In this document: piece after piece, positions 360 to 55,491 of the stretch
Layout of the letters: the number at the start of each line of letters is the position of its first letter
How positions within the stretch are numbered: position 1 is the stretch's first letter
Source of the DNA: an uncultured Candidatus Saccharibacteria bacterium
Lineage (GTDB): Bacteria; Patescibacteriota; Doudnabacteria; UBA920
Direction of reading: 5' to 3'
Length of the DNA: 58,516 nucleotides
Assembly (NCBI GenBank): GCA_964484145.1
Contig: CAZAED010000003.1
Span: 1 to 58,516 of the forward strand
Notes under the pieces: generated by a model
Seen by the model: the letters and a program-made list of their open reading frames with translations, nothing else
What the model was told of the DNA's origin: nothing
Database searches by the model: none
Program-made: the position numbers and the translations under genes

Positions 360-923
360 ATGACTAAGTCCAATACAACAGAACAGAAAGTTATAAAGGC
401 ATCTGCCCTAAATCTTCGGATTTCTCCGCGTAAGATGCGTCTTTTAACTGACTTAGTTAGAGGTATGTATGTTGACCAGGCTGTAACGGCTTTAGAATAT
501 GCGCCACAAAAAGGCGCGGAATTTTTACTCAGAGCTATAAAATCTGCAGCCGCGAACGCCGTAAATAATTTTGCTTTAAAACCGGAAAATTTGTATGTAA
601 AAACCGTTACCTGCGATATGGGAAGAGTTATGAAACGCTATTTTCCAAGAGCTCGCGGCAGCGCGTTTGTTATAAAGCGCAAAATGGCTCACGTAAATGT
701 TGAACTTTCAGAAAAGGCGCGTGGTGGTAAAGCAGCTTCCCGTTTAGAACTTTTTAAGAAAAAACAGTCTGAAAATTTAGCAAGTGAAGACAAGAAGGAT
801 GCTACAGAAAAGAAGACCGAAAGCCCGAAAATTAAACAGCATACAGTTAAGACCGACGAACAGGTTAAAATGAACAAAGCTCAAAACAAGAGAAGACTAT
901 TTAATAGAAAGAGCGGAGAGTAA
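360..923 (+). CDS. rplV: 50S ribosomal protein L22 with long Lys/Glu-rich C-terminal extension
   Basis: The L22 core (ISPRKMRLLTDLVRG, RARGSAFVIKRKMAHV) occupies the first ~115 aa. Operon position fits. The remaining ~70 aa are low-complexity K/E-rich sequence. Confidence 0.93.
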   Translation: MTKSNTTEQKVIKASALNLRISPRKMRLLTDLVRGMYVDQAVTALEYAPQKGAEFLLRAIKSAAANAVNNFALKPENLYVKTVTCDMGRVMKRYFPRARGSAFVIKRKMAHVNVELSEKARGGKAASRLELFKKKQSENLASEDKKDATEKKTESPKIKQHTVKTDEQVKMNKAQNKRRLFNRKSGE

Positions 924-1004
924 TATAAAATTTAGGATATAAGATGTAAGATTTAGTTTGCATACTTATATCATAAATCCTAAATCATAAATCTTACATT
1001 TATT
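921..1004 (+). repeat. stop-to-start word-hairpin, family B (TAGGATATAAGATGTAAGA / TCTTACAT..TATCCTA)
   Basis: The 5' block 921-960 contains no C and the 3' block 961-1004 contains no G. ATGTAAGATTTA pairs with TAAATCTTACAT. Confidence 0.85.
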
Positions 1005-3303: not shown

Positions 3304-3621
3304 ATGAACAAACTCAGAATTAAAAAAGGCGATACAGTAAAAGTGCTTTCCGGCAAAGACAAAGGCAAAACCGGCAAGGTTATTTCGGTAATGCCAAAAC
3401 TTGGTAAGGTTGTTGTAGAAAACGCCAATATGCATACTCGTTTTGAAAAGGCTAAAAAAGCCGGCGAGAAAGGTAAAAAAGTTACTTTTTCTTCCCCTAT
3501 GCAAATTTCGAAAGTCCAGTTAATAGATCCGCATTCAGGTAATCCAACAAGAGTAAACTATACTTTTTTAGAAAACGGTAACAAGCAAAGAACAGCTAAG
3601 GCCAGTGGAAAGGCAGTATAA
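3304..3621 (+). CDS. rplX: 50S ribosomal protein L24
   Basis: KOW motif KKGDTVKVLSGKDKGKTGKV; operon order. Confidence 0.94.
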   Translation: MNKLRIKKGDTVKVLSGKDKGKTGKVISVMPKLGKVVVENANMHTRFEKAKKAGEKGKKVTFSSPMQISKVQLIDPHSGNPTRVNYTFLENGNKQRTAKASGKAV

Positions 3622-3693
3622 TGTACGGAAGTACAGATAATACGGATCATGTGGATCTGTAAAATCTGTAAGATCCGTAATTCTGTAAATTAT
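3622..3693 (+). repeat. ~70-nt hairpin repeat, copy 1 of 3 (GTACGGAAGTACAGATAATACGGATCAT...GGATCTGTAAAATCTGTAAGATCCGTAATTCTGTA)
   Basis: Near-identical to 4234-4304 and 4977-5051. Confidence 0.92.
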
Positions 3694-4233
3694 ATGGAAA
3701 GATTACAAGAAAAATATAATAAGGAAATTGTTAAAGCTTTGAAAGAAAAGTTTGGCTTTAAGAATGTAATGGAAGTACCAAGAATTTTGAAAGTTGTTAT
3801 TAATGTGGGCGTTGGAAAAATTAAGGAAGATAAGAAGCGTATAGATTTAGTAGTTGAAGATATTGCCAAAATTGCAGGACAGGCTCCGGTAAAGAATTTG
3901 TCCCGCAAGTCTATTTCAGGTTTTAAAGTAAGACAAAACCAAATTGTAGGTTTAAGTGTTACTTTAAGAGGATATAGAATGTATAGCTTTTTAGACAAGT
4001 TGGTCAATGTGGCCTTACCAAGAGTAAGAGATTTCCAGGGTATAAGCAAAAAAGGTTTCGACGGCCGTGGTAATTATCACTTGGGAATGAAAGAGCAAAT
4101 AGTTTTTCCGGAAGTTTCTCCGGATTCTCTAGAAAATATATTCGGCTTGGAAATTTCGGTAGTCACCAACGCTAAAAGAGACGATACAGCATATGAACTT
4201 TTAAAATTAATGAAATTCCCGTTTAAAGATTAA
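3694..4233 (+). CDS. rplE: 50S ribosomal protein L5
   Basis: The L5 sequence begins at MERLQEKYNKEIV. The 15 upstream codons of the tracked ORF (from 3649) read through the intergenic repeat. NLSRKSISGFKVR and RDFQG motifs are present. Confidence 0.93.
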   Translation: MERLQEKYNKEIVKALKEKFGFKNVMEVPRILKVVINVGVGKIKEDKKRIDLVVEDIAKIAGQAPVKNLSRKSISGFKVRQNQIVGLSVTLRGYRMYSFLDKLVNVALPRVRDFQGISKKGFDGRGNYHLGMKEQIVFPEVSPDSLENIFGLEISVVTNAKRDDTAYELLKLMKFPFKD

Positions 4234-4304
4234 TGTACGGAAGTACAGATAGTACGGATCATAGGGATCTGTAAAATCTGTAGAATCCGTAATTCTGTAA
4301 ATTT
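4234..4304 (+). repeat. ~70-nt hairpin repeat, copy 2 of 3
   Basis: Differs from copy 1 at a handful of positions. Confidence 0.92.
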
Positions 4305-4499
4305 ATGGCTACAGTAGCACACATTGTCAGAGCAAAACGAAGTAGAACCAAGGCAAAATTTTCCAGTAGGATAATTCGCCGTTGTTTTCGCTGCGGTAGA
4401 AAAGCTGCTTATATTCGAGATTTTGACCTTTGTAGAATTTGTTTTAGAGAATTAGCCAGTAAGGGAGAAATCCCTGGTGTTTCAAAAGCTTCCTGGTAA
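4305..4499 (+). CDS. rpsN: 30S ribosomal protein S14, zinc-binding type Z
   Basis: 64 aa, CxxC...CxxC (CFRCGR...CRICFRE), ends in W; operon order. Confidence 0.94.
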
Positions 4500-4583: not shown

Positions 4584-4976
4584 ATGTATACAGACCCAAT
4601 CTCAGACATGCTAACCAGAATCCGCAACGCGTTGTCCGCAAAAAAGGATGACCTTGTTTTGCCATATTCAAAGTTTAAAAAGAACTTGGCGGATTTGCTG
4701 ATGCAAGAGGGTTTTGTGGCCGGAGTAAACGAATTAGAAGGTGACCATAAAATGCTCCAAATAAATTTAAAATATTCAGGCGCGGGCGAACCGGTAATTG
4801 CAGGAATAAAGCGCGTAAGTAAACCGGGGCAGAGAATTTATTTGTCTAAAGACAGCTTGCCTAGAACTAACAGCGGCCTTGGTCTTACTGTAGTTTCTAC
4901 TTCTAAAGGTTTAATGTCAGACAGAAAAGCAAGAAAAGAAAAAGTTGGCGGAGAAGTAATATGCCAGGTTTGGTAA
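4584..4976 (+). CDS. rpsH: 30S ribosomal protein S8
   Basis: DPISDMLTRIRNA N-terminus and GGEVICQVW C-terminus. Confidence 0.96.
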   Translation: MYTDPISDMLTRIRNALSAKKDDLVLPYSKFKKNLADLLMQEGFVAGVNELEGDHKMLQINLKYSGAGEPVIAGIKRVSKPGQRIYLSKDSLPRTNSGLGLTVVSTSKGLMSDRKARKEKVGGEVICQVW

Positions 4977-5051
4977 TTAACGTACGGAAGTACAGATAAT
5001 ACGGATCATACGGATCTGTAAAATCTGTAGAATCCGTAATTCAGTATATTT
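4977..5051 (+). repeat. ~70-nt hairpin repeat, copy 3 of 3
   Basis: Same sequence family as copies 1 and 2, between rpsH and rplF. Confidence 0.92.
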
Positions 5052-5606
5052 ATGTCAAGAATTGGAAAAAAACCCATAAGCATTCCTAGCGGAGTAAAGG
5101 TAGAAAAAACTGCCGGTCTTTTAAAGGTGTCCGGTCCGAAAGGTAATTTGCAGCAGGAGATTCATCCGCTTGTAACTGTTAATATTGTAGAAAACGAAGT
5201 TACTGTTGATGTTGTAAAGAAAGAAGACAAAAAACAGAGAGCATTGTGGGGTTTGTTCCGCTCTTTAGTTTTTAATATGATAGAAGGTGTTACAAAAGGT
5301 TTTGAAAAAAAGCTCGAAGTAAATGGCGTAGGCTTTAAGGTAGCATCTCAACCTGGTAAAATAGTTATGTCCTTGGGTTTTTCTCACCCGGTTGAAGTTA
5401 CGGTTCCAAAAGATTTACAGGCTGTTGTAGAAAAGAACTTAATTACTATTACCGGAGCAGACAAACAGAGAGTTGGACAATTTGCAGCTGAAATTAGAGA
5501 GTTGAAAAAACCTGAGCCGTATAAAGGTAAAGGTATTAAATATATAGACGAAGTTATTGTTAAGAAAGCGGGTAAAGTGGTTAAAGTAGTTGGTGGAGGC
5601 AAGTAA
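5052..5606 (+). CDS. rplF: 50S ribosomal protein L6
   Basis: MSRIGKKPI-IP-GV and PEPYKGKGI-Y motifs. Confidence 0.96.
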   Translation: MSRIGKKPISIPSGVKVEKTAGLLKVSGPKGNLQQEIHPLVTVNIVENEVTVDVVKKEDKKQRALWGLFRSLVFNMIEGVTKGFEKKLEVNGVGFKVASQPGKIVMSLGFSHPVEVTVPKDLQAVVEKNLITITGADKQRVGQFAAEIRELKKPEPYKGKGIKYIDEVIVKKAGKVVKVVGGGK

Positions 5607-5687
5607 ATATAAAATTTAGGATATAAGATGTAAAATGTTAGAGCTTAGTATATCCTAAATCCTAAATCATAAACCCTATATTTTTTT
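5604..5687 (+). repeat. stop-to-start word-hairpin, family B, second copy
   Basis: The first ~30 nt are essentially identical to 921-950. The 3' block is G-poor (TATCCTAAATCCTAAATCATAAACCC). Confidence 0.88.
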
Positions 5688-9187: not shown

Positions 9188-9721
9188 ATGGGAAAATTTA
9201 CCAACACAAGAAGGCTGTCAAAAGATCAGCAAAATGAATTGTTTATTCGTTTTTCTAAGGCTTTGGCCGCCGTGAAAAATCCAGTAGAAGCTGCTAATTT
9301 TATAAAAGATTTGTTTTCCGAGCAGGAGGCGTTAATGTTAGCACGCAGATTACAGATTGCTGAGCTATTAAATGATGGATTAACTTACGAAGATATTCGA
9401 AAGGCAATGAAGGTAAGTCATACTACAATTGCTAAGGTTCAAACTTGGTTAAGCTTGTATGGGGAGGGGTATAGGATGGTATTAAAACGAACAACGGAAA
9501 AAACAAAAAATTCTGAATTGAGTCGTCCTTGGCGAACTTTAAAGAAGAGTTACCCTATGTATTTTTGGCCGCAATTGCTTTTAGAAGAAATTGTTAAAAC
9601 AGCAAATAAGAGAGAGAAACAAAAGCTATTGAATGTTGTAAATGGTTTAAGAGAAAAAACTAAGCTCTCTAATGAACTTTTGAAGATTTTAAAATTCGAC
9701 CAAAACTCCAATACTATCTAG
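9188..9721 (+). CDS. YerC/YecD-like (TrpR-family) DNA-binding protein with C-terminal extension
   Basis: The N-terminal ~100 aa look like the TrpR-related YerC/YecD family (FF-DLFS-QE--ML--RLQIA-LL--G-TY-DI---M-VS-TTI--V). The assignment is by eye. Confidence 0.7.
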   Translation: MGKFTNTRRLSKDQQNELFIRFSKALAAVKNPVEAANFIKDLFSEQEALMLARRLQIAELLNDGLTYEDIRKAMKVSHTTIAKVQTWLSLYGEGYRMVLKRTTEKTKNSELSRPWRTLKKSYPMYFWPQLLLEEIVKTANKREKQKLLNVVNGLREKTKLSNELLKILKFDQNSNTI

Positions 9722-9730
9722 TATTGGAGA
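9705..9730. repeat. second copy of the palindrome spanning the yerC-like stop codon
   Basis: CTCCAATACTA-TC-TAGTATTGGAG has 11-nt arms. Both genes end in ...SNTI-stop. Confidence 0.9.
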
Positions 9731-9747
9731 AATAGCAGTTTTTAATT

Positions 9748-10113
9748 ATGTTAAACGAAGAATTTGAAAATTTAATAAGTGAGGCGGTGGCGGCTTTGCC
9801 CCAGAATATTCGTGAAAAGCTAAATAATGTTTCTATTACTATGGAAGAAGGGGATTCGCCGAACAATAGTTTGTTTGGTTTGTATCATGGTGTGTCGCAA
9901 ATAAAGCGCGGGTCAAGTTATGGGATGGGCGCAACGCTACCTGACAAAATTACTATTTATAAAGGCACAATAGAAAAATTTGCCGGTGATCCTTTAAACA
10001 TACCAAATATGGTTCGCCGAGTGGTTTGGCATGAAATAGGCCACCATTTTGGTTTTGACGAAGCTGGGGTTAGGCGTCTTGAAGAAAAATGGGCAAAAGA
10101 AGGGAAGATATAA
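9748..10113 (+). CDS. zincin-like metallopeptidase (small HExxH protein)
   Basis: 121 aa with HEIGHHFG near the C-terminus. Resembles the DUF1025/zincin_1 type. Confidence 0.7.
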   Translation: MLNEEFENLISEAVAALPQNIREKLNNVSITMEEGDSPNNSLFGLYHGVSQIKRGSSYGMGATLPDKITIYKGTIEKFAGDPLNIPNMVRRVVWHEIGHHFGFDEAGVRRLEEKWAKEGKI

Positions 10114-13156: not shown

Positions 13157-13205
13157 CGCGCCGATTTATCGGCCAGCTAAGGACGCCCATAAATGGGCAC
13201 GCTAC
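13153..13205 (+). repeat. two-hairpin element, copy 1, overlapping stop codon of the ATPase gene
   Basis: The outer pair is GTAGCG...CGCTAC. It encloses hairpins GCCGAT-TT-ATCGGC and GCCCAT-AA-ATGGGC. The TAG stop is at 13154-13156. Confidence 0.88.
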
Positions 13206-13240
13206 GCATAGGTCAGAGATGAAATAAATAAGTCAAAGGC

Positions 13241-22697: not shown

Positions 22698-22748
22698 TGC
22701 GCCGATTTATCGGCCATTATCAGCAAGGCCCATAAATGGGCACGCTAC
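22694..22748 (+). repeat. two-hairpin element, copy 2, overlapping tpiA stop codon
   Basis: GTAGTGCGCCGATTTATCGGCC...GGCCCATAAATGGGCACGCTAC, with the TAG stop at 22695-22697. The C-to-T change in the outer stem keeps pairing as G-U. Confidence 0.88.
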
Positions 22749-22757
22749 ACATACAAT

Positions 22758-36445: not shown

Positions 36446-38161
36446 ATGAAAATTTGGAAACTAAAAAATACTATACCTGCCGAACTATCGGAAATATACA
36501 AAGATTACCCAACCTTGCTTGCCCAATTGCTTTTTGATAGAGGGCTTAGGGAAAAAGAAGAAATTCAAAAATTTATTACTGCTAATTACCAAGAGGGCTT
36601 AAACAGCCCCTTTTTGTTCGGTGATATGGAAAAAGCGGTTAACAGAATTTGGCAGGCTATAGAAAGTAACGAAAAAATTACTATTTACGGGGACTATGAC
36701 GCAGATGCTGTAACAGCAAACGCTGTTCTTAGGCAGACTTTTAGTTATTTGGGAGCAAATGCGGATAGCTATATTCCGGACAGATTTGCGGAAGGTTATG
36801 GGGTTAACTTAGAAGCACTTTTTAAAATTAAGGCCAACGGGACTTCTTTAATTATTACAGTAGATTGTGGGACTAACTCTGTAGATGCGGCCGAATGGGC
36901 GAAAGAAAACGGAGTCGATTTTATAATTACCGACCACCACGAAATAATTGGAGAAACGCCAAAAGCTTTTGCGCTAATAAACCCTAAAAACCCAAATGAC
37001 AAGTATCCAGACGACCAAATTGTAGGCGTGGGGGTTGCGTTCAAAATCGCTCAAGCGATTTTGACAAGTGAAAAGTGTAAAGTGCAAAGTAAAAAGTACA
37101 TCGAAGGCTATGAAAAGTGGCTACTTGATTTAGTGGCGATTGGTACGGTGGCGGACTGCCATAAACTTTTGGGGGAGAATAGGGTTTTTGTAAAATACGG
37201 CCTAAAAGTTTTGCAAAAAACCAAATGGGTTGGTCTTAAGGCGCTTATTGAATCTTCAAAGTTGGATTTTAGTAAGCAGCCGCCTGACACCTACAGTTTG
37301 GGTTTTGTTATAGCACCGCGGCTTAACGCGGCCGGACGACTTGAACATGCTAACGTAGCCTTAAATTTGTTGCTCGAAGCTGACCCTGAAAAAGCAAAAG
37401 AAATGGCGCAAAATTTAGAAGAAATAAATTTGCGAAGGCAGGAAATAACCGCGCGCATTATGAGCGAGGCCAGAGAGCAGGCAGAAACTATAAAGCATAG
37501 AAAAGTTTTGGTAATGATGTCTCAGGGCTGGCATAAGGGGGTGGTAGGCTTGGTAGCCGGCAAGATAGCAGAAGAGTTTTATAAGCCCACAATAGTTTTA
37601 GAAAAGGGTGAGGTTGAGGCTACCGGTTCAGCTAGAAGTGTAGGTGAATTTAATGTGGTAGAAGCTTTAAAGTATTCAAGTAGCCACTTAATTCGTTTTG
37701 GTGGACATAAGCAAGCGGCTGGACTTACGCTGAATATAGAAAATTTTGAAATATTCTACCAAACTCTTCTGGATTTTGCTGAGAATAATGCTAATGGCGA
37801 CCAAGGTCCTGTTTTATATCTTGATTCTGAACTTTCCGCGGAAGACTTACAACTTACAACTTACAACTTAATAACTGCTCTGGAGCCTTTTGGAGTTGGT
37901 AACCCCAAGCCCAAATTTTTAGTAAAAAATGTTAAAATAATAAGTAAGAAAACAGTAGGGCAAAAAGCTCAGCATTTACAATTACAAATTTTAGCTGGTG
38001 AAAAACAAATATCTTGCATTGCCTTTAATTTCGGCGACAGATCAAATAGCTTAAATATACACGACGAAATAGATTTGGCTTGCGAGCTTTTGCTCGACAG
38101 TTGGAACGGTCGGGAAAATTTAAAATTAAGAATAATAGATATTAGAAATAATTTAAATTAA
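36446..38161 (+). CDS. recJ: single-stranded-DNA-specific exonuclease RecJ
   Basis: DHH-family motifs (GDYDADAV, VDCG, ITDHHE), GGH--AAG and GVGNPKP motifs. Confidence 0.93.
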   Translation: MKIWKLKNTIPAELSEIYKDYPTLLAQLLFDRGLREKEEIQKFITANYQEGLNSPFLFGDMEKAVNRIWQAIESNEKITIYGDYDADAVTANAVLRQTFSYLGANADSYIPDRFAEGYGVNLEALFKIKANGTSLIITVDCGTNSVDAAEWAKENGVDFIITDHHEIIGETPKAFALINPKNPNDKYPDDQIVGVGVAFKIAQAILTSEKCKVQSKKYIEGYEKWLLDLVAIGTVADCHKLLGENRVFVKYGLKVLQKTKWVGLKALIESSKLDFSKQPPDTYSLGFVIAPRLNAAGRLEHANVALNLLLEADPEKAKEMAQNLEEINLRRQEITARIMSEAREQAETIKHRKVLVMMSQGWHKGVVGLVAGKIAEEFYKPTIVLEKGEVEATGSARSVGEFNVVEALKYSSSHLIRFGGHKQAAGLTLNIENFEIFYQTLLDFAENNANGDQGPVLYLDSELSAEDLQLTTYNLITALEPFGVGNPKPKFLVKNVKIISKKTVGQKAQHLQLQILAGEKQISCIAFNFGDRSNSLNIHDEIDLACELLLDSWNGRENLKLRIIDIRNNLN

Positions 38162-38240: not shown

Positions 38241-38672
38241 ATGAACACAATGAAACTAATTATAAATACAGACGGTGGTTCCAGAGGCAACCCTGGCCCT
38301 TCGGGCATTGGGGTGGTAATTCGAGATGAAAAAGGTATGGTTATTAGCGAGCACAAAAAATATATTGGCGAAACCACAAATAATCAGGCGGAATACAAAG
38401 CACTAATATTGGGCTTAGAAGAAGTTGGGAAAATATCCAATATCCAATATCCAATATCCAATCTTGAAGTTCGAATGGATAGTGAGCTTATAGTTAGGCA
38501 AATGCAAGGCCGTTATAAAATAAAAGACCAAGGGCTTAAACCCTTAGCTGACATTGTTTTAAAACTTTGTAAAAATTTTGAAAAAGTTGAATTTTGCCAC
38601 GTGCCAAGAGCGCAGAATTCAGACGCTGACAGGCTGGTAAATGAGGCTATAGACGAAGAGAAAAACAATTGA
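38241..38672 (+). CDS. rnhA: RNase H (type 1, RNase HI-like)
   Basis: TDGGSRGNPGPSG, NNQAEY-AL, DSEL and NS-AD-L motifs. Contains an (ATATCCA)4 tandem repeat in frame. Confidence 0.85.
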   Translation: MNTMKLIINTDGGSRGNPGPSGIGVVIRDEKGMVISEHKKYIGETTNNQAEYKALILGLEEVGKISNIQYPISNLEVRMDSELIVRQMQGRYKIKDQGLKPLADIVLKLCKNFEKVEFCHVPRAQNSDADRLVNEAIDEEKNN

Positions 38673-42296: not shown

Positions 42297-42327
42297 TAAG
42301 TAACCTTTGGTAATTGACAACATTGAT

Positions 42328-42355
42328 TTGACATTCTGACTAAAGGTGGTAAACT
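42328..42355 (+). promoter_or_regulatory. sigma70-like promoter with extended -10
   Basis: TTGACA-16 nt (ending in TGG)-TAAACT. Confidence 0.5.
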
Positions 42356-42363
42356 AGCTATAA

Positions 42364-42604
42364 TAAAATATTATAAAGCACTAAACATTCGGCCTCGCAC
42401 GCCGAAACGCTGGCAGGGGAATATCTTGCACGGTCAGCCTACGCCGTAGAAATAGGTAAAAAGAGTTCGCTATTGTTGTCTGATCGCCTATTAATCGGCA
42501 CGCTACAACATAAGTGAAAATCGAGGTGGTACCGCGGAAGCGATAATATATCGTAAACCCGACCTTGAAAACAATTTTTTGTTTTTGGGGACGGGTTTTT
42601 GTTT
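42364..42604 (+). promoter_or_regulatory. T-box-like transcription-attenuation leader
   Basis: GAGGTGGTACCGCGG at 42523-42537 matches the T-box core GGGTGGNACCGCG. The flanks UCGAGG and CCUUGA can close an antiterminator around a UGGUACC bulge. CCUUGA is also part of the 5' strand of the terminator at 42555-42598. Confidence 0.5.
42555..42604 (+). terminator. intrinsic terminator of the leader
   Basis: AAACCCGACCTTGAAAACA...TGTTTTTGGGGACGGGTTT followed by TTGTTT. Confidence 0.7.
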
Positions 42605-42634
42605 GGAAAATCTATAATTAGGGAGAAGGGATAA

Positions 42635-42901
42635 ATGTGGCATCATCATAAGGAGCCGCTGAGGGTGGGACTCTTTGGGTATGATTGGAGAGATAGAATT
42701 GTTCAGGAATTGGCAAGAGTTAGGGGGCATCAGGTTATTTGGATTGCCCATATCCACCAGGCAGGGATTGTTTTGGACTTTTTATTGGACGACCCGCCGG
42801 ACATCCTAGTTGTCCACCCTTTAGCGCGTGTTAATTTCCCTCTGCTATTGTCCCCCCAGGCGGTAGTAGTAATCGGCCCGTCTCGGGCCAAAACAAGGTG
42901 A
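42635..42901 (+). CDS. orphan 88-aa protein in high-GC island 1
   Basis: Strong RBS GGGAGAAGGG at 42621-42630, four nt before the ATG. An intrinsic terminator lies directly downstream. Composition is R/P/W/H-rich, unlike the neighbouring genes. Confidence 0.55.
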   Translation: MWHHHKEPLRVGLFGYDWRDRIVQELARVRGHQVIWIAHIHQAGIVLDFLLDDPPDILVVHPLARVNFPLLLSPQAVVVIGPSRAKTR

Positions 42902-42909
42902 CGCAAAGG

Positions 42910-42955
42910 GCGCCGTGAAGGGTTATTATGTACCCGCGCGGCGCTTGTTTTTGTT
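42910..42955 (+). terminator. intrinsic terminator after island-1 ORF
   Basis: GCGCCG...CGGCGC stem followed by TTGTTTTTGTT. Confidence 0.75.
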
Positions 42956-42982
42956 GACATAAGGTGAACTATCGTTTACTAT
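42954..42982 (+). promoter_or_regulatory. sigma70-like promoter for dinB
   Basis: TTGACA-17 nt-TACTAT. Confidence 0.5.
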
Positions 42983-43098
42983 AATATTATGAAACGAACT
43001 GGATCCTGGATATTTTTGCGGCCTTAGATGATCCTAAGCGTAAAAAATTCCGGGATAACAAAGGTGAGTTAATTGTTAATCGTAAATTGTTAATTGTT

Positions 43099-44487
43099 AT
43101 GACCCCAGTTATTATTCATTTAGATATGAACAGCTATTTTGCTTCGGTTGAGCAGCAGGACAACAAAGAATACCGAGGCAAGGTTTTGGGCGTGTGTGAG
43201 CATTTGGGCGGGATTATAATAGCCGCCAGCATAGAAGCCAAGCGTTGGGGTATAAAAACCGGTACGCCGGTTTGGGAAGCTAAAAAGCTGTATCCTAAAA
43301 TTATCCTCGTTCATACCCGCGCGGATGCTTACAGGGAGTATCACCGCAGGTTTTTAAAAGTAATGCGGGATTACAGTAATTTTGTAGAGCCGGCAAGTAT
43401 AGACGAGGCGTATGCGGACATAACAAGGGTGTGCAATATAAGATGTAAGAATGAAGATGTAAGATATGGGGACTGCTCAGAAATCTTACATCCTAAATCT
43501 TATATCTTAAATTCATTCGTTAATCCTTTTGAAGAAGCTGTAAAGGTGGCTTTGGAAATTAAGCAAAGGATGAAAAAAGAAGTGGGGGATTATTTAACTT
43601 GCTCTATAGGCATTGCGGAGAACAAACTCCTGGCAAAAATTGCGAGTGACTTAAAAAAGCCAGATGGAGTTGTAGTAGTGACGGGTGACGAGTTACGAGT
43701 TACGAGTGGGGAAGCCGAACATTTTACTATTAGTGATCTTTATAACAAGCTTAAACTAACCGACATACCGGGTATAGCTAAGCGTCAGGAAAAAAGGCTA
43801 AACGCGCTTGGAATAAAAACTTTAAAGGAGCTGCGCGATTACCCTTTAAGCAAGCTAGTGCGCGTTTTTGGCATTAACGGTTACCATTTGCACCATATGG
43901 GACAACTTAGCGGCAGCTGGAAAGCCAAAGTTAATTTTGACGAATCTATTAAATCAATCGGCCATATGTATACGCTACCTAAGGAATACAGAAAACCGGA
44001 ATTTTTTGAGCCGGTTTTGTACAAACTTTGCGAAATGGTGGGGGAGAGGCTTAGAAGGAAAAAGTTAATGGGAAATATTGTGGTGGCTTACGTGCGAGAC
44101 GGTAATTATAATTCTTATGGACATTCTGTAAAGTTATCTAACGACATTTTTGACGCAAGGGATTTGTTTTGGGAAAGTAGATATATAATAAAGAATTATC
44201 CGGATATAAATAAAATTATTGCCAATTGTAAACTTATTGGCGTAACAGTAGCAGGACTAAAGCCTTTTGTTTTGCAGCAGTCTTTGTTTAAAAAACAAAC
44301 CGCCCAGGCCTCGCTTACCCGCGCGGTAGATGTAATAAACGCCAAATATGGCAAATTTACCCTCTCCTACGCTCCTGTGTTAAAGGCAGGTAAAGTATTC
44401 CGCGATTCAGTTGGGTTTGGTAGGGTTAAAGAAGTTGGTAATGATGCCGATATTTCCATAAGGCCTGGGAAGAGTTTTAAAAGATAG
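43099..44487 (+). CDS. dinB: DNA polymerase IV (Y-family)
   Basis: IIHLDMNSYFASVEQ, SIDEAYADIT, SIGIA-NKLLAKIASD-KKPDG and the ending of the family are present. About 100 aa longer than usual because of repeat-word insertions. Confidence 0.9.
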   Translation: MTPVIIHLDMNSYFASVEQQDNKEYRGKVLGVCEHLGGIIIAASIEAKRWGIKTGTPVWEAKKLYPKIILVHTRADAYREYHRRFLKVMRDYSNFVEPASIDEAYADITRVCNIRCKNEDVRYGDCSEILHPKSYILNSFVNPFEEAVKVALEIKQRMKKEVGDYLTCSIGIAENKLLAKIASDLKKPDGVVVVTGDELRVTSGEAEHFTISDLYNKLKLTDIPGIAKRQEKRLNALGIKTLKELRDYPLSKLVRVFGINGYHLHHMGQLSGSWKAKVNFDESIKSIGHMYTLPKEYRKPEFFEPVLYKLCEMVGERLRRKKLMGNIVVAYVRDGNYNSYGHSVKLSNDIFDARDLFWESRYIIKNYPDINKIIANCKLIGVTVAGLKPFVLQQSLFKKQTAQASLTRAVDVINAKYGKFTLSYAPVLKAGKVFRDSVGFGRVKEVGNDADISIRPGKSFKR

Positions 44488-45339: not shown

Positions 45340-47013
45340 ATGATCATAAATATTTTACTTGTCGTTGATTTTATTATTCTTGCCATTGTTGTAACATGGT
45401 ATGTTTTTCGTTCGCTAAAAGAGCGCGATGTTTTAAGAAAACGCTTAAGCCAGAGCTTGCAGCTGCAGCAAAAAGTCTACCAAGCGCAGGTTTTAAAAGA
45501 AATTAGCGAACGTATTGGTTATAGTTTAGACACAAACAAGGTGGTAGAAATTATTACCAACTCTTTAGGTAATTTGCTGGAATACGACACGGTTTCGTAT
45601 ATGGTTTTGTCGGAAGACCATAAGGTAGTTTTTAAATGCCATGTGGAAAATACGGTTAACCATGAATTTACTTCGGAAGTTAAAGAAAAAATGCTAGCAG
45701 CTTTTTCCGCTATTTTAAACGAAGAAATAAAACCTCAAAAAATTGACGAAAGCATAACGGGAAATATTTTAGACGACAATATAAATGTTGTGGTTAAATC
45801 GTATTTTAATTTACCTGTGGTTATTGGTGAAAAATTAATTGGGCTTATAAACGTAGCTTCTTCGGAAGCAGGTCGCTATGGCGACGAGCAGGCTTCTATT
45901 TTATATACCATAACTAACCAAGCGGCTACTGCTGTAACTAAACTGCAGGCGGTTTTACATTCGGAAAAAGGCAAGCTTGAGGCTGTTATAGACTCTATTG
46001 CAGACGGAATTATTAACGTGGATTTAAACCATCAACTTTTAATTGCTAATCCGGCGGTTAAAGAAATTTTAGAAATAAACAACTTAAAGCCCGGAGAGGC
46101 TCTTACTATGTTCGACATAGTAGACGCACTTGCAGGTAAAACCGACCTTAGGACTAAAATTGACCAGGCTTTAAGCGAAGACAAAGCAATTTTTGTGCCT
46201 GACGTTGTTTTAAAAAACAAAGCTTTAGAAATTACCATTACTCCAGTTAAAACAGAAAAAAATGAAAAAATTGGCACTAACGTAGTTTTTCATGACATTA
46301 CTACTGAAAAATCTTTAGAAAAACTTCGTCAGGAATTTACTGCTATGATGGTGCACGAACTACGCGCGCCTCTAACCGCGGTTCGCTGGTCAAGCGAGTC
46401 AATGATAAAAACCTTAGCCGCTGCACAAGGCACGGACCCAGGCAAGCTTAAGGACACCTTTTTAACTATAGAAACAGCGTCGAACAATATGCTCGAGTTA
46501 GTTAACGACTTGCTAGATGTAGCAAAAATAGAAGCCGGTAAATTTGAGCTAAACATTCAAGACTACGATTTAGTAGAAACTTTAAAGCAGCAAGTTGAGG
46601 CATTTAAACCCCAGGCCGAAGCTAAGCATTTAACAATTAAATTTACTTCCCCGGAAAAGTTTAAATGTAAGTTTGACCGAGTGCGCGTGGCTCAGGTTTT
46701 GGGTAATTTAATAAGCAATGCTATAAAATATAGTGACGCAGGTGAAATTTCGGTAAATATTAACCCGGAAACAAATGCTAAGCGAGTTGTAATTGGCGTA
46801 AAAGACAACGGTATAGGAATATCGCCGGAAGATTTGCCTGTACTGTTTTCTAAGTTTAAGCAGCTTAAAAGCGGCGACAGAAGCCGTAAAGGAACTGGCC
46901 TTGGTTTGGTGGTGACTAAAGGTATAGTCGAATCTCATGGCGGTCAGGTTTGGGTAGAGAGCCAGGGGGAAAATTTAGGTTCAACATTCTACTTTTCTTT
47001 GCCGACGGAGTAA
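45340..47013 (+). CDS. sensor histidine kinase (TM-GAF-PAS-HisKA-HATPase)
   Basis: H-box MVHELRAPLT, N-box LISNAIKY, G-boxes DNGIGI and GTGLGL. Confidence 0.92.
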   Translation: MIINILLVVDFIILAIVVTWYVFRSLKERDVLRKRLSQSLQLQQKVYQAQVLKEISERIGYSLDTNKVVEIITNSLGNLLEYDTVSYMVLSEDHKVVFKCHVENTVNHEFTSEVKEKMLAAFSAILNEEIKPQKIDESITGNILDDNINVVVKSYFNLPVVIGEKLIGLINVASSEAGRYGDEQASILYTITNQAATAVTKLQAVLHSEKGKLEAVIDSIADGIINVDLNHQLLIANPAVKEILEINNLKPGEALTMFDIVDALAGKTDLRTKIDQALSEDKAIFVPDVVLKNKALEITITPVKTEKNEKIGTNVVFHDITTEKSLEKLRQEFTAMMVHELRAPLTAVRWSSESMIKTLAAAQGTDPGKLKDTFLTIETASNNMLELVNDLLDVAKIEAGKFELNIQDYDLVETLKQQVEAFKPQAEAKHLTIKFTSPEKFKCKFDRVRVAQVLGNLISNAIKYSDAGEISVNINPETNAKRVVIGVKDNGIGISPEDLPVLFSKFKQLKSGDRSRKGTGLGLVVTKGIVESHGGQVWVESQGENLGSTFYFSLPTE

Positions 47014-47017
47014 TAAT

Positions 47018-47192
47018 ATTGACAAAATCGACAGAATTGACAAAATTAGGGGGCAACTGCGGTGGAATTATGTCAATTATTTAATTATTCCCGCCTGCCA
47101 AAATTAGTCTGTTTTACATCGCCGACTTATGATTATCAATAATCTTTTATAAGATAAAGATTTGGCGGGCCGGTAAATTTTGTTCAATCCTG
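47018..47192 (+). repeat. ~175-nt dispersed structured element, copy A
   Basis: Aligns along its length with 55308-55491 with only scattered substitutions. It has a family-E hairpin, then a long-range stem CCCGCCTGCCAAA / TTTGGCGGGCCGG enclosing about 55 nt. Confidence 0.9.
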
Positions 47193-48169: not shown

Positions 48170-48832
48170 ATGGAAAACCAAAATCAACAACAAACACAGG
48201 TCTCTCAAGTTCCGGAACTCCATAAACGCCATTTTAAGTCTTTTTGGCCAATAGTTATAATTGCCGTTCTTTCCGCCTTAGTGGGCGGAATTTTGGTTTT
48301 TCTTTTATTTAACCAAGGCTTAGACGAAGAGCTAAACAGCCTCTTGCCGGGCTCCAGCTATCGCCAAACGCACGAGCAGGTAAAAGATAAGGAAAATAAT
48401 GTCCCTACCTGGCAGACTTATAAAAATGAGGAGTATGGGTTTGAATTGAAATATCCTGGAGATTGGGGCGTAATAAAAGTTTATGATGAAGATTTTTTAG
48501 TACAGCCTGATAAGGAGGGTTGTAGAAATGCTTCTACCATAACAGTTAATTGTGTAAGACTAGAGATTAATTTTAATGTTCAAACGTTCGTAGATTACGA
48601 AGCCTCTGGTAATACATTTAAGGTTATAGACCCTGAGAAATTAAAAGTCTCTGTCTTAAATAATAATTCTTTTTGGGTGCTAGAAGACGAAGCAGAAGGA
48701 ATGGAATTTAAACAGTTTATCATTAAGGATAAATACAAAAGATATTATAGTTTTACCTCTCGTATGGATGTTGATAATAAAGAGCAGCAACTTATAGACC
48801 AAATCCTTTCCACTTTTAAATTTATTGAATAA
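48170..48832 (+). CDS. hypothetical membrane-anchored protein
   Basis: One TM helix, then a beta-rich ectodomain (YKNEEYGFELKYP). Confidence 0.65.
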   Translation: MENQNQQQTQVSQVPELHKRHFKSFWPIVIIAVLSALVGGILVFLLFNQGLDEELNSLLPGSSYRQTHEQVKDKENNVPTWQTYKNEEYGFELKYPGDWGVIKVYDEDFLVQPDKEGCRNASTITVNCVRLEINFNVQTFVDYEASGNTFKVIDPEKLKVSVLNNNSFWVLEDEAEGMEFKQFIIKDKYKRYYSFTSRMDVDNKEQQLIDQILSTFKFIE

Positions 48833-48885
48833 GAGTTTTGGCTTTAAAATCTTACATCTTATATCCTAAATCTTAAATTTCTAAA

Positions 48886-52026: not shown

Positions 52027-52974
52027 ATGACTTATGAACATATTCCAGTATTACTTAATGAGGTTATATTTTACCTTCAGCCTAAGGCCGGTGAGAATTT
52101 TGTGGACGCGACGCTAGGAGGGGGTGGGTACACAAGGGCTATACTAGACAAAATTCAGCCAGGGGGCAGGGTGCTGGCTATAGATCTTGATAAAGACGCC
52201 TTAAAGAATACAGAAGTGGGAATGCAGAATGCAGAATTAGAGAAAAACTTAGTTTTACATCACGGGAACTTTCAAAACATAAACAAAATAACAAAAGAAC
52301 ATGTATTTAGTAATATTTCAGGCATTGTGGCAGATTTGGGACTTTCGTCATATGAACTTGACCAATCTACCCGAGGATTTAGTTTTCAAAAAAAAGAACC
52401 GCTAGATATGCGGTTTGACCAGAGTCAGCCGGAAGACGCGAAATACATTTTAAATAACTACGACGAAGAAAGATTAAGAAAAATTTTTGAAGACTACGGA
52501 GAGGAAAAGTTTAGTCGCCAGATAGCAAGAAGGGTGACGAGTGACAGGTTACGGGTGACTGGGGGTATAAAACACACCCATGAGTTATATCAAATTATCC
52601 AAGATGCCTTACCAAAACCGGTTAAACATAAGGCAGACGACAGTGCTAGAAGAATATTCCAGGCTTTAAGAATAGCAGTTAACCATGAATTAGCTTCGCT
52701 CGAGGAATTTTTACCTAAAGCATTCGACATTTTAAACCCAGGCGGCAGGCTAGTAATAGTAAGCTTCCATTCTTTAGAAGACAGGCAGGTAAAACAGTAT
52801 TTTAACAGTTTAACAAAAGGATGTGTTTGTCCAATAGATTTCCCTCAGTGTGTGTGCGGTAAAAATCCGCAAGGAAAATTATTAACTAAGAAAATTGTTA
52901 CGGCTTCCGAGCAAGAATTGTTAGATAACCCAAGGTCTAAGCCGGCAAAATTAAGAGCAATAGTTAAATTATAA
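52027..52974 (+). CDS. rsmH: 16S rRNA (cytosine1402-N4)-methyltransferase RsmH
   Basis: H-PVL--E, DATLGGGGY, DLG-SS-QLD, FSF and SFHSLEDR-VK motifs. Confidence 0.94.
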   Translation: MTYEHIPVLLNEVIFYLQPKAGENFVDATLGGGGYTRAILDKIQPGGRVLAIDLDKDALKNTEVGMQNAELEKNLVLHHGNFQNINKITKEHVFSNISGIVADLGLSSYELDQSTRGFSFQKKEPLDMRFDQSQPEDAKYILNNYDEERLRKIFEDYGEEKFSRQIARRVTSDRLRVTGGIKHTHELYQIIQDALPKPVKHKADDSARRIFQALRIAVNHELASLEEFLPKAFDILNPGGRLVIVSFHSLEDRQVKQYFNSLTKGCVCPIDFPQCVCGKNPQGKLLTKKIVTASEQELLDNPRSKPAKLRAIVKL

Positions 52975-53571: not shown

Positions 53572-55311
53572 ATGGCGCTACGAAAAATAAAAAATCCATT
53601 AGACACAAGAAGCAGTTTATTGGCTGCTTTTTTTATACTGTGTTTTTTTGTAATTTTACTTCGGTTGGCTAATTTGCAAATTTTGCACGGCTCAGAAAAC
53701 AAAAGCAAGGCGGAGTCACAAAGAAATATGGTATTAAAGCTTTTGCCTACCAGAGGTGAAATAAACTTAGTTGAAAGTTCAACGCAGCAACTTTTGCCGG
53801 TAGCTACCAACATAGAAAAACCTTTGGTTTATGGTGTGCCCGCGGATGTGCAAAATCCGGTTTTAGCTGCCGCAAGCCTTTCTGCAATTTTAAATGTAGA
53901 TCAAAATGAGTTGTTAACTAAGTTAGCTAACAAGCAAAAAAAATATGTAGTTTTAAAAAAACAGTTAAGCGAGGAAGAAGTAAATAAAATTAAGGAGCTT
54001 AAATTAAGCGGTATTTTTTTTGACGGCGAAGGTTTTAGGTTATACCCGCAAGGCAATTTGCTCTCGCAGGTTTTGGGTTTTGTAGGGTATAAAGGCGACA
54101 CAAAGCAAGGGGTTTATGGTCTTGAAAGTTATTTTGAAAGCGAACTTTCCGGCAAAGAAGGTCTGCTTAAGCAAGAAGGTGATATAAGCGGCGCTTGGAT
54201 ATTTGGTGGAAACAGGCAAATAGAGGAAGCTAAAGATGGCGACTCTTTAATTTTAACTATAGACAAAAATATTCAGTACGAAGCGCAGAAAGTTTTAAAA
54301 GACACTGTTGAAAAAAATGAAGCTGACAGCGGAACCGTAATTATTGCGGACCCAAAAACCGGCAAAATTTTAGCCATGGCTGGGTTTCCGGATTTTGACC
54401 CAAACAAATTTAACGAAGTAACCGACCCCGCTGCCTTTAACAACGAAGCCACGAGCGGCGTGTATGAACCGGGTAGCGTGTTTAAACCTTTAACCATGGC
54501 CGCGGCAATAAACGAAGGTAAAATTACACCGGACACCACTTTTGTAGACGAAGGGTTTGTTAAAATAGACGACAAAACCATAAAGAATTCAGACCCAAAG
54601 CCTAGAGGATTGCAAACAATGACTCAGGCGTTAGAGGAGTCTTTAAACACAGGTTTAATATTTGCCAAAGACCAAATCGGTAACCAAAAGTTTTTAGAAT
54701 ATGTAAAGCGTTTTGGTTTTGGCGAAAAAACCGGTATTGAATTAATGGAAAAGAAGGGGAATTTAGACAACTTAAAAGCAAATATTAATGTAAACTATGC
54801 GACTGCAAGTTTTGGTCAGGGTTTAACAGTAACGCCTATTCAGCTAATACAAGCTTTTTCGGTTTTTTCTAATAGCGGAAAAATGATAAAACCCTATATT
54901 GTGGCAAGTAAAATTTCACCCGAGGGGCAAAGGAAAGACATAAAACCTACTGTGGTTAGGGAAGTAATTTCTCCTCAGACCGCTAATACAGTTACCGCAA
55001 TGATGGTAAATGTAGTAGAAAATGGCCATGGCAAAAGAGCCGGGGTGCCCGGGTACTATATTGCAGGTAAAACTGGCACAGCTCAAGTGTCGAGACAAAA
55101 TGGTCTTGGTTATGAAGAGAATGTTAACATTGGTACCTTTATAGGTTTTGGACCGGTGGAAGACCCGAGATTTTTAATGCTGGTTCGTGTAGACAAACCT
55201 AAGACGGTCAAGTTCGCGGAAAGTACGGCTGCGCCGGCTTTTGGACAACTTGCACAGTATCTTTTAAACTATTATCAGGTACCACCGACAAGAGAAATAA
55301 AGAAGAAATGA
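53572..55311 (+). CDS. ftsI: penicillin-binding protein (FtsI/PBP2-type transpeptidase)
   Basis: TM anchor, PBP dimerisation region, SVFKP (SxxK), SLN (SxN-like) and KTGTA motifs. Confidence 0.9.
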   Translation: MALRKIKNPLDTRSSLLAAFFILCFFVILLRLANLQILHGSENKSKAESQRNMVLKLLPTRGEINLVESSTQQLLPVATNIEKPLVYGVPADVQNPVLAAASLSAILNVDQNELLTKLANKQKKYVVLKKQLSEEEVNKIKELKLSGIFFDGEGFRLYPQGNLLSQVLGFVGYKGDTKQGVYGLESYFESELSGKEGLLKQEGDISGAWIFGGNRQIEEAKDGDSLILTIDKNIQYEAQKVLKDTVEKNEADSGTVIIADPKTGKILAMAGFPDFDPNKFNEVTDPAAFNNEATSGVYEPGSVFKPLTMAAAINEGKITPDTTFVDEGFVKIDDKTIKNSDPKPRGLQTMTQALEESLNTGLIFAKDQIGNQKFLEYVKRFGFGEKTGIELMEKKGNLDNLKANINVNYATASFGQGLTVTPIQLIQAFSVFSNSGKMIKPYIVASKISPEGQRKDIKPTVVREVISPQTANTVTAMMVNVVENGHGKRAGVPGYYIAGKTGTAQVSRQNGLGYEENVNIGTFIGFGPVEDPRFLMLVRVDKPKTVKFAESTAAPAFGQLAQYLLNYYQVPPTREIKKK

Positions 55312-55491
55312 CAAAATTGACATAATCGACGGAATTGACAAAATTAGGGGCACAACTGCAGTGTAATTATGTCAATTTTTTAAATTATTCCCGCCTGCCA
55401 AAATTAGTCTTTTTACATCGCCGACTTATGACTATCAATAATCTTTTATAAGATAAACATTTGGCGGGCAGGTAAATTTTGTCTATTCTGG
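55308..55491 (+). repeat. ~175-nt dispersed structured element, copy B (includes ftsI stop codon)
   Basis: See copy A. The loop carries CTGCAG at 55356-55361. The stem is CCCGCCTGCCAAA / TTTGGCGGGCAGG. Confidence 0.9.

Follow-up and report, generated by a model that had tools for sequence, protein, structure and literature searches.

The stretch of DNA studied here (the window, 58,516 nt in total) derives from a Candidatus Doudnabacteria-like bacterium of the candidate phyla radiation (CPR), judging from the source names of its DinB relatives, and contains at 43102..44487 (+ strand) an intact dinB gene for DNA polymerase IV (Pol IV), in the coding sequence (CDS) of which a palindromic repeat, designated family B, is located in frame. 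The assignment of dinB, for which TTG at 43087 represents an alternative start, is based on the list of open reading frames (ORFs), on Pfam and Protein Data Bank (PDB) matches and on an AlphaFold2 (AF2) model. All Y-family domains are present (IMS, 8e-39; IMS_C; IMS_HHH_1), and the product displays the features of a Y-family Pol IV, i.e., the IMS palm/finger, the thumb HhH, the little finger and the catalytic D..(S)IDE; the PDB match to Pol IV reached E = 5e-49. The AF2 model, calculated from an alignment of 39 orthologues with a mean predicted local distance difference test value (pLDDT) of 79.9, yielded TM values of 0.72–0.75 against Dpo4 and a Foldseek probability of 1.0 to Dpo4 and Pol kappa. 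Since the ORF is whole and no other disruption was seen, dinB does not represent a pseudogene, in agreement with the initial annotation of this DNA.

The hairpin (43435-43513) is placed directly after the catalytic SIDE strand and in the reading frame of dinB. It consists of (i) a 5' arm (43435..43465, +) with the words TATAAGA TGTAAGA ATGAAGA TGTAAGA, encoding NIRCKNEDVR, (ii) a loop (43466..43482, +), encoding YGDCSE and varying between orthologues, and (iii) a 3' arm (43483..43513, +) with the words ATCTTAC ATCCTAA ATCTTAT ATCTTAA, encoding ILHPKSYILN. The 31-nt arms are 84 % complementary and enclose a loop of 17 nt. The minimum free energy predicted for the RNA is -31.8 kcal/mol, compared to -15.45 +/- 2.62 kcal/mol for 200 dinucleotide-preserving shuffles, none of which was as good (z = -6.24, 0/200). 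An ungapped stem scan of the 58.5-kb window ranked this hairpin as top-scoring and as the only one residing wholly within a CDS. Its translation, NIRCKNEDVRYGDCSEILHPKSYILN, is open in only one of the six frames, namely that of dinB, while the copies of the hairpin in intergenic spacers contain stops in all six frames. Thus, the complete in-frame hairpin reported in the initial annotation was borne out by the arm statistics and the intact ORF, and the stop-free translation quoted there is correct.

Two further full-length copies of the family-B hairpin are present in the window, one in the rplV|rpsC spacer (922..1002, +; 73.9 bits with the model R1) and one in the rplF|rplR spacer (5606..5684, +; 74 bits), the 5' arm of the latter being 97 % identical to 922-952. 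A one-armed array of family-B words is located in an intergenic spacer at 48846..48878 on the minus strand (weak R1 match at 48812-48881). Altogether, three full-length copies and one partial copy are found in 58 kb. The gene names rplV, rpsC, rplF, rplR and rsmH were confirmed by NCBIfam. When the dinB hairpin was aligned over its full length with the two spacer hairpins and their rplV|rpsC counterparts from the genomes L134 and L135, a mean column identity of 68–77 % and a common architecture of four words, loop and four words, with the arm word consensus NTARGAT, became apparent; the dinB hairpin therefore belongs to the same repeat family as those next to rpsC and rplR, as had been claimed from the sequence at the outset. 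Family-B elements are 79–81 nt long with a GC content of 19–28 %. The word GATGTAAGAT occurs 12 times in the window with at most one mismatch (2.96 +/- 1.88 expected), the matches being located in the rplV|rpsC spacer (936-1000), the rplF|rplR spacer (5620-5636), at 48849-48865 and in dinB. Model R1 was built from 11 family-B copies and has only 5 consensus pairs, so that it works as a sequence profile; its scores of 66–91 bits on the training copies, which include both spacer hairpins of the window, are expected by construction, and only weak further matches were obtained in ~850 kb of Doudnabacteria DNA.

On the protein level, residues 111-147 of DinB correspond to five residues in the polymerase structure of PDB entry 7yll, i.e., ~32 extra residues are present at the hairpin. 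In the AF2 model this insert forms a predicted coil (pLDDT 48-67) between strand E103-107 and helix H143-162, with the flanking 10-residue blocks averaging a pLDDT of ~90 or more. The hairpin-encoded segment is accordingly predicted to occupy a surface coil, modelled at low confidence, with the Dpo4-like fold being kept; the initial annotation had proposed a check for such a surface loop.

For comparison, 120 homologous proteins, 80 genomic loci of species representatives and eight further contigs were considered. The ~190 DinB orthologue entries from Doudnabacteria comprise 107 proteins (P-numbers, e.g., P0008) and 88 DNA loci (L-numbers for loci or contigs, e.g., L083), the two sets partly overlapping. 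Among seven orthologues with the hairpin, nucleotide identity amounted to 0.85 in the arms, 0.48 in the hairpin loop and 0.63 in the rest of the gene, and conservation dropped sharply at the ends of the element. Where the same residue is encoded, the same codon is used at a frequency of 0.925 in the arms as compared to 0.41 expected from codon usage, the corresponding values for the rest of the gene being 0.45 and 0.39; moreover, the period of the repeat is 7 and not 3. The dinB repeat is thus conserved as DNA rather than as protein. A 33-nt arm stretch is even 100 % identical between the window and L083, although synonymous divergence elsewhere in the gene is close to saturation.

The hairpin resides in a loop of DinB (loop 1, between C-N-[IV] and [ND]-P-[FW]-x-E-A) that spans only 7–16 residues without DNA hairpin in many lineages (e.g., CNVKGVN in L026/P0118; CNIRGYKDGVLQKLD) and up to 127 residues elsewhere, then containing either one-armed heptamer arrays or hairpins with folding energies between -20 and -170 kcal/mol. 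Relative to the orthologues lacking it, the segment represents an in-frame insertion. The family-B peptide RCKNEDVRY...ILHPKSYILN was found in 10 of the 107 DinB proteins, i.e., in the window and in nine others with 66–69 % identity to the window on conserved columns, the nearest carrier sharing 69 %. The hairpin itself was located in six or more further orthologues with available DNA sequence (DinB 58–63 % identical), where codon position, frame and orientation are those of the window. By contrast, P0002, which is 95 % identical to the window on conserved columns, has another cassette, and the window together with the closely related loci L088, L001, L002 and L003 carries four unrelated cassettes within nearly identical flanks; all of these begin directly after TGYAAY and finish before AATCC. 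Examination of relatives for presence or absence of the insertion, as proposed in the initial annotation, hence revealed that the closest relatives hold other cassettes at the same codon. One of these cassettes (RVTS) is common to L003 and L088 in the shallow clade of the window.

In neighbour-joining trees of the 107 orthologues (gap-free columns, 10 bootstrap resamplings), which are crude, the family-B carriers are scattered. Fitch parsimony required 9–10 changes for the ten carriers, and a single gain would entail 36–44 losses, a result stable over the 10 bootstraps. The variant RCMNEDV is common to P0016, P0017 and P0020; the last of these is chimeric, combining family B with a different family, and its 3' half matches the cassette of P0023/P0028. 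In all ~190 orthologue entries, dinB is in frame.

A second hypervariable loop of DinB at the palm-thumb junction (loop 2, flanked by KP[DN]G and L-x-L-x-D-[IV]-P-G) is invariably 15 residues long in a large clade, where it is LVVVRPEDKDSLYDR-like, and comprises 26–78 residues in the clade of the window, where it is filled by word arrays or perfect GC-rich hairpins. In the window, this loop (43677..43711, +) encodes VVTGDELRVTSGE by five 7-nt words of the AGTGACG family (period 7, 4.6 copies according to TRF), forming a one-armed array without hairpin. Compared to 7yll, 12 extra residues are present at this block (43678-43711), and they are predicted to form a coil of moderate confidence (pLDDT ~85). 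Words of the same family are found in rsmH (52531..52565, +), encoding RVTSDRLRVTGG, again as a one-armed period-7 array without hairpin; since the rsmH product is just 2–5 residues longer there than its orthologues, the array mostly overwrites codons and can hardly be regarded as an insertion. The two coding assignments and the similarity of the words agree with the initial annotation, with the correction that both blocks are one-armed and that the block in rsmH mostly represents a replacement. An array of the AGTGNAA family (37062..37097, +) encodes LTSEKCKVQSKK in frame within a 571-aa gene (36446-38161) that probably codes for RecJ, as suggested by synteny with L081/L083. The word family of the second dinB block, which occurs in rsmH and the RecJ-like gene of the window, also fills loop 1 of DinB in L088 and L003, and the AGTGNAA words of the RecJ-like gene occupy loop 1 in P0008, L003 and L088. 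The phenomenon thus generalises to two DinB loops across the candidate phylum and to other genes of the window.

Across the window, 62 tandem arrays of period 7–9 were counted as compared to ~7 in shuffled sequence, with 35 of them in non-coding DNA (10.6 % of the window) and 19 inside genes. Another family of 79-nt hairpins, built from TACGGAA/ATCTGTAAA words, is present in three copies of 86–94 % identity before rplE (3617-3695), between rplE and rpsN (4229-4307) and between rpsH and rplF (4976-5054); owing to the first of these, the start of rplE is called too far upstream by the ORF caller (MWICKICKIRNSVNY...). For nearly every spacer of the S10/spc operon, there are genomes with a word-built hairpin and others in which the spacer is almost empty, as exemplified by the rplP|rpmC spacer with 103 nt in the window versus 6–30 nt in L132-L135. 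In some cases, genomes have a word family in common at a given position, e.g., AGCTTAT words at rpsE|rplO in the window, L132 and L133.

With a word length of 7, which is not divisible by 3, the reading phase passes through all three possibilities from word to word. If the five imperfect arrays inside CDSs were made up of perfect consensus words, each of them would include exactly one stop in frame; in all cases, the actual word at this position is a variant: TAA to GAA in the third word of the 5' arm of the dinB hairpin, TAA to TAT in its 3' arm, TGA to TTA in loop 2 of dinB, TGA to TTA in rsmH and TGA to TGT in the RecJ-like gene. Stop avoidance also accounts for the fact that the least variable block within the dinB hairpin, GAATGAAGAT, is the unpaired internal bulge. 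In case of the two perfect in-gene arrays (ACTTACA and AATATCC), the words are stop-free in every phase. The in-gene arrays are evidently translated, as far as can be judged from the reading frames. The two perfect arrays are located in the RecJ-like gene (ACTTACA x3.7, 37845-37870) and in a 143-aa gene (AATATCC x4.4, 38432-38462); gain or loss of a unit would shift the frame, rendering them candidate slippage-prone sites.

The interpretation favoured here, with a probability of roughly 65 %, is that the family-B inverted repeat is tolerated in a hypervariable DinB loop as an entity of the DNA level, subject to rapid cassette turnover and templated renewal. A dispersed inverted repeat of ~80 nt, with arms of degenerate 7-nt words, is lodged in frame in a structurally permissive loop between the catalytic β-strand and the subsequent helix and would be translated as ~26 extra, probably disordered residues. 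The protein would merely tolerate the repeat, with selection only keeping the frame open and every third word consequently being a stop-free variant. Loops 1 and 2 of DinB behave as cassette sites in Doudnabacteria, at which word-built hairpins and arrays are gained, partly overwritten and lost far faster than the flanking codons change. The data show the insertion in frame, its kinship with the spacer hairpins, its placement in the loop, conservation of nucleotides instead of residues, avoidance of stops and fast turnover, the route by which cassettes arrive being inferred. Arrival and renewal of the cassettes could proceed by templated copying from other family members (gene conversion or template-switch repair) in combination with slippage, and the hairpin-prone site may itself be the place of such copying; transposase-mediated transposition would be a less likely route.

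Two readings fit the data, namely recurrent templated re-acquisition of the cassette or one ancient insertion overwritten dozens of times. The latter, which appears conceivable rather than probable, assumes a single insertion in an early ancestor of Doudnabacteria and its retention at the nucleotide level, be it by arm complementarity together with coding in both arms or by a sequence-specific function, followed by dozens of overwrites and losses. Identical codon, frame and orientation in 10 of 10 carriers would agree with this, as would the RCMNEDV sub-clade and the P0020 chimera, suggestive of descent with stepwise overwriting, and the family-B-like hairpins in the rplV|rpsC spacer of the window, L134 and L135, according to which a position can persist. 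However, 36–44 independent losses would have to be assumed, one site could not hold both RVTS and family B ancestrally within one shallow clade, and the 33-nt arm is identical in the window and L083 despite near-saturated synonymous sites. A functional RNA element in the dinB mRNA, serving, e.g., to pause translation, to stabilize the transcript or to bind a regulator, is unlikely. The strong predicted fold and the retention of arm nucleotides, including synonymous sites, in the seven orthologues would speak for it, but compensatory changes were observed at 0/20 pairs, the most invariant block is unpaired and accounted for by stop avoidance, and sister species have one-armed arrays or nothing at the site. 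Furthermore, sense and antisense strands of 22 hairpins of the window do not differ in folding energy (-0.46 kcal/mol on average, p = 0.40 by Wilcoxon test; 36 vs 46 G-U pairs), and neither an Rfam family matching the repeat nor a terminator-like tail at the hairpin was found. Given the missing compensatory pairs and the equal folding of both strands, no evidence for selection on an RNA structure was obtained.

Mobilization of a classical non-autonomous transposon (MITE, a miniature inverted-repeat transposable element, or Rickettsia palindromic element, RPE) by a transposase, with independent insertion into dinB in each lineage, is likewise improbable. Dispersed copies of fixed length (~79–81 nt) and high identity within the genome, the patchy distribution of the dinB copy and the known in-frame insertion of RPEs (PMC10969869) are compatible with it; yet no target-site duplication is apparent at the dinB junctions, copies vary in how many words they contain and in which order, not by point divergence from a single consensus, arrays with only one arm as well as partial overwrites occur, and repeated insertion at an identical codon would demand site specificity. 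That no transposase was identified is a weak point in this respect, as the ORFs of the window were not systematically scanned. It is highly improbable that the insert is a conserved functional protein segment of the DinB lineage with incidentally palindromic DNA. Such a segment could explain the recurrence of RCKNEDVRY...ILHPKSYILN in 10 of 107 orthologues, but nucleotides and not residues are conserved (0.925 vs 0.41), the closest relatives (95 % on conserved columns) are unrelated at this position, some orthologues are devoid of an insert, and the segment is modelled as a low-pLDDT coil. Protein-level conservation was rejected by the codon-identity test with its codon-usage control. The peptide does recur in distant DinB proteins, which the initial annotation regarded as evidence against an inserted element; this does not apply here, since conservation is at the nucleotide level and the closest relatives lack the peptide.

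Several findings weigh against the favoured reading of templated cassette renewal. The family-B copy counts cover ~58 kb, i.e., a part of the genome, and translation of the arrays is deduced solely from ORF integrity and stop avoidance. Neither a target-site duplication (dinB junctions compared with empty or otherwise filled sites) nor a terminal signature of the dinB element was found. The dinB-specific core AAGAATGAAGATGTAAGAT has no further match in the window at up to three mismatches, occurs among 131 loci only in dinB of the window, L083 and L084, and neither the 16–21 kb around three other carriers nor viral contigs or the related loci of ~850 kb in total yielded a donor. All carriers share one junction, frame and orientation, and the variant common to P0016, P0017 and P0020 indicates vertical descent within sub-clades. 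Finally, conservation of the arms without compensatory change (0/20 pairs) is unexplained for a mere passenger. Mobility of the element, which the initial annotation had considered, was not demonstrated, given that no duplication was seen and that few and weak further copies are present in ~850 kb of related DNA.

A metagenome scan for AAGATGTAAGAT..ATCTTACATC retrieved 43 loci of varied GC content, mostly intergenic and many with word-built arms, none of which (0/43) is a dinB copy; the words are therefore widespread, and the origin of the dinB copy is not informed by them. Hairpins with arms of GTAAGAT-type heptamer words were observed on the metagenome contigs L089-L131 at GC contents of 0.27 to 0.58. 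The word-built repeat architecture may extend well beyond Doudnabacteria. Spacers around dinB in distant relatives contain mostly different hairpins or none and hence provide no positional information at that divergence.

If the favoured reading is true, CPR bacteria would represent the second clear case, after Rickettsia, of palindromic repeats read through in conserved enzymes, with an architecture differing by its 7-nt words, the stop-avoidance rule and the cassette-like turnover at fixed loops. It would also constitute a natural experiment on proteins gaining disordered loops from non-coding repeat DNA, and stretches like RVTS.., KFQISN and RCKNEDV would have to be annotated as repeat-derived when met in CPR proteins. 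The combination of nucleotide-level conservation of the cassette with very fast turnover is puzzling and may hint at a mechanism by which organisms with a minimal repair repertoire copy or recognize such DNA. More tentatively, one may speculate that Doudnabacteria, and possibly other CPR bacteria, harbour an undescribed genome-wide class of hairpin repeats made of 7–9-nt words that enter spacers and permissive loops of conserved proteins by active, templated and possibly site-directed copying. On this view, the ~75-nt cassette would reappear at one and the same dinB codon across lineages with saturated synonymous sites, implying that cassettes are exchanged out of a conserved repertoire or that the words are recognized by a trans-acting machinery. 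A search of a paper library on repeats and hairpins of CPR, Patescibacteria and Doudnabacteria yielded no description of such elements.

Additional features were noted in the vicinity of dinB and elsewhere. The 790 nt upstream of dinB (42297-43086) contain no convincing ORF, have a higher GC content and a predicted fold of -249 kcal/mol, and gave no Rfam match; the counterpart in L088 carries an acetyltransferase gene and a 102-aa ORF, and the region could represent a decayed gene or an RNA. In L084, a family-B carrier, a gene with 23S_rRNA_IVP / bAvd-like Pfam matches (9579-9965) is located directly upstream of dinB, bAvd-like proteins being an accessory protein type of diversity-generating retroelements. 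L083 encodes an IS1595 transposase. A GC-rich motif with one or two short hairpins (GCCGATTTATCGGC, GCCCATAAATGGGC) is present at 13157-13215, 22698-22757 and 42470-42520, its end at these three intergenic sites being formed by the decamer GGCACGCTAC without deviation; if one mismatch is allowed, 5 matches of the decamer are obtained versus 1.7 expected, a number reached by 4/100 shuffles and thus a weak enrichment. A repeat of ~180 nt occurs at 47004-47183 and 55302-55482 (84–96 % identical), 3' of a histidine-kinase gene and of the gene 53572-55311, and is composed of a word array containing TTGACA (promoter -35-like) followed by a GC-rich structured part without Rfam match. The product of rplV (360-923) comprises 187 aa, of which residues 15-115 match the 103-position L22 model; the C-terminal extension of ~70 residues is also present in relatives (187–193 aa, L132-L135).

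Short hairpin repeats between the genes of operons, with occasional in-frame copies inside genes, are known as MITEs, repetitive extragenic palindromes and bacterial interspersed mosaic elements (REP/BIME), ERIC and BOX (PMC10969869, PMC3733652), and the dinB repeat resembles them in this respect. Unlike MITEs, it constitutes one long inverted repeat, and no terminal inverted repeats with target duplication were seen. It also differs from REP/BIME (20–40 nt, GC-rich, GTAG/CGTC head) in its length of ~80 nt, its GC content of 19–28 % and the absence of such a head, and from REP and MITE families in general by the internal tandem architecture of 7–9-nt words. No REP-associated tyrosine transposase (RAYT) or other transposase was identified with the repeat, a RAYT search not having been made. 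In contrast to phase-variable contingency loci, the dinB arrays are imperfect (73–88 % matches) and all orthologue entries are in frame. PARCELs share with the dinB repeat coding DNA of dyad symmetry, a punctate distribution and a suggested movement between and within genomes, but they are defined by protein hidden Markov models as 25-residue protein-domain repeats, arranged in tandem in membrane-associated ORFs of unknown function, and are not insertions in loops of conserved enzymes.

Quasipalindrome template switching and slipped-strand mispairing would allow arms to stay complementary while their words change, with hotspots at hairpin-prone sites. Template switching is a mechanism and not an element family, and alone it leaves the recurrence of a 75-nt cassette in distant lineages unexplained. 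The tandem repeats of Borgs are reported to be similarly fast-evolving, to arise independently, to occur in intergenic as well as coding DNA and to add disordered segments (PMC9879509). Distinct from these, the unit of the dinB arrays is 7 nt, every third unit is mutated against stops, and the arrays are typically paired as inverted copies. Genic Borg repeats reportedly have units in multiples of three and are direct repeats.

The closest parallel, already proposed in the initial annotation, is provided by the RPEs (Ogata et al. 2000, reviewed in PMC10969869), ~150-bp consensus elements of Rickettsia that are found in frame in conserved genes at surface positions. This analogy holds for the behaviour (palindromic, dispersed, in frame and at the surface) and not for membership, since length, words and host differ. 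Whereas RPEs have a fixed consensus of ~100–150 bp, the dinB repeat measures 79–81 nt and is composed of degenerate 7-nt words of variable order and number; in addition, one-armed arrays exist, one codon holds different families in sister species, and the host belongs to the CPR. The distinction from RPE-1 to RPE-10 is drawn from their descriptions and not from sequence comparison. As with RPEs, several families exist per genome, and the dinB repeat is a multi-copy, dispersed palindrome with the potential for a stable hairpin, located between genes and in frame within a housekeeping gene, where it is apparently translated into additional residues at the surface that the fold of the enzyme can accommodate.

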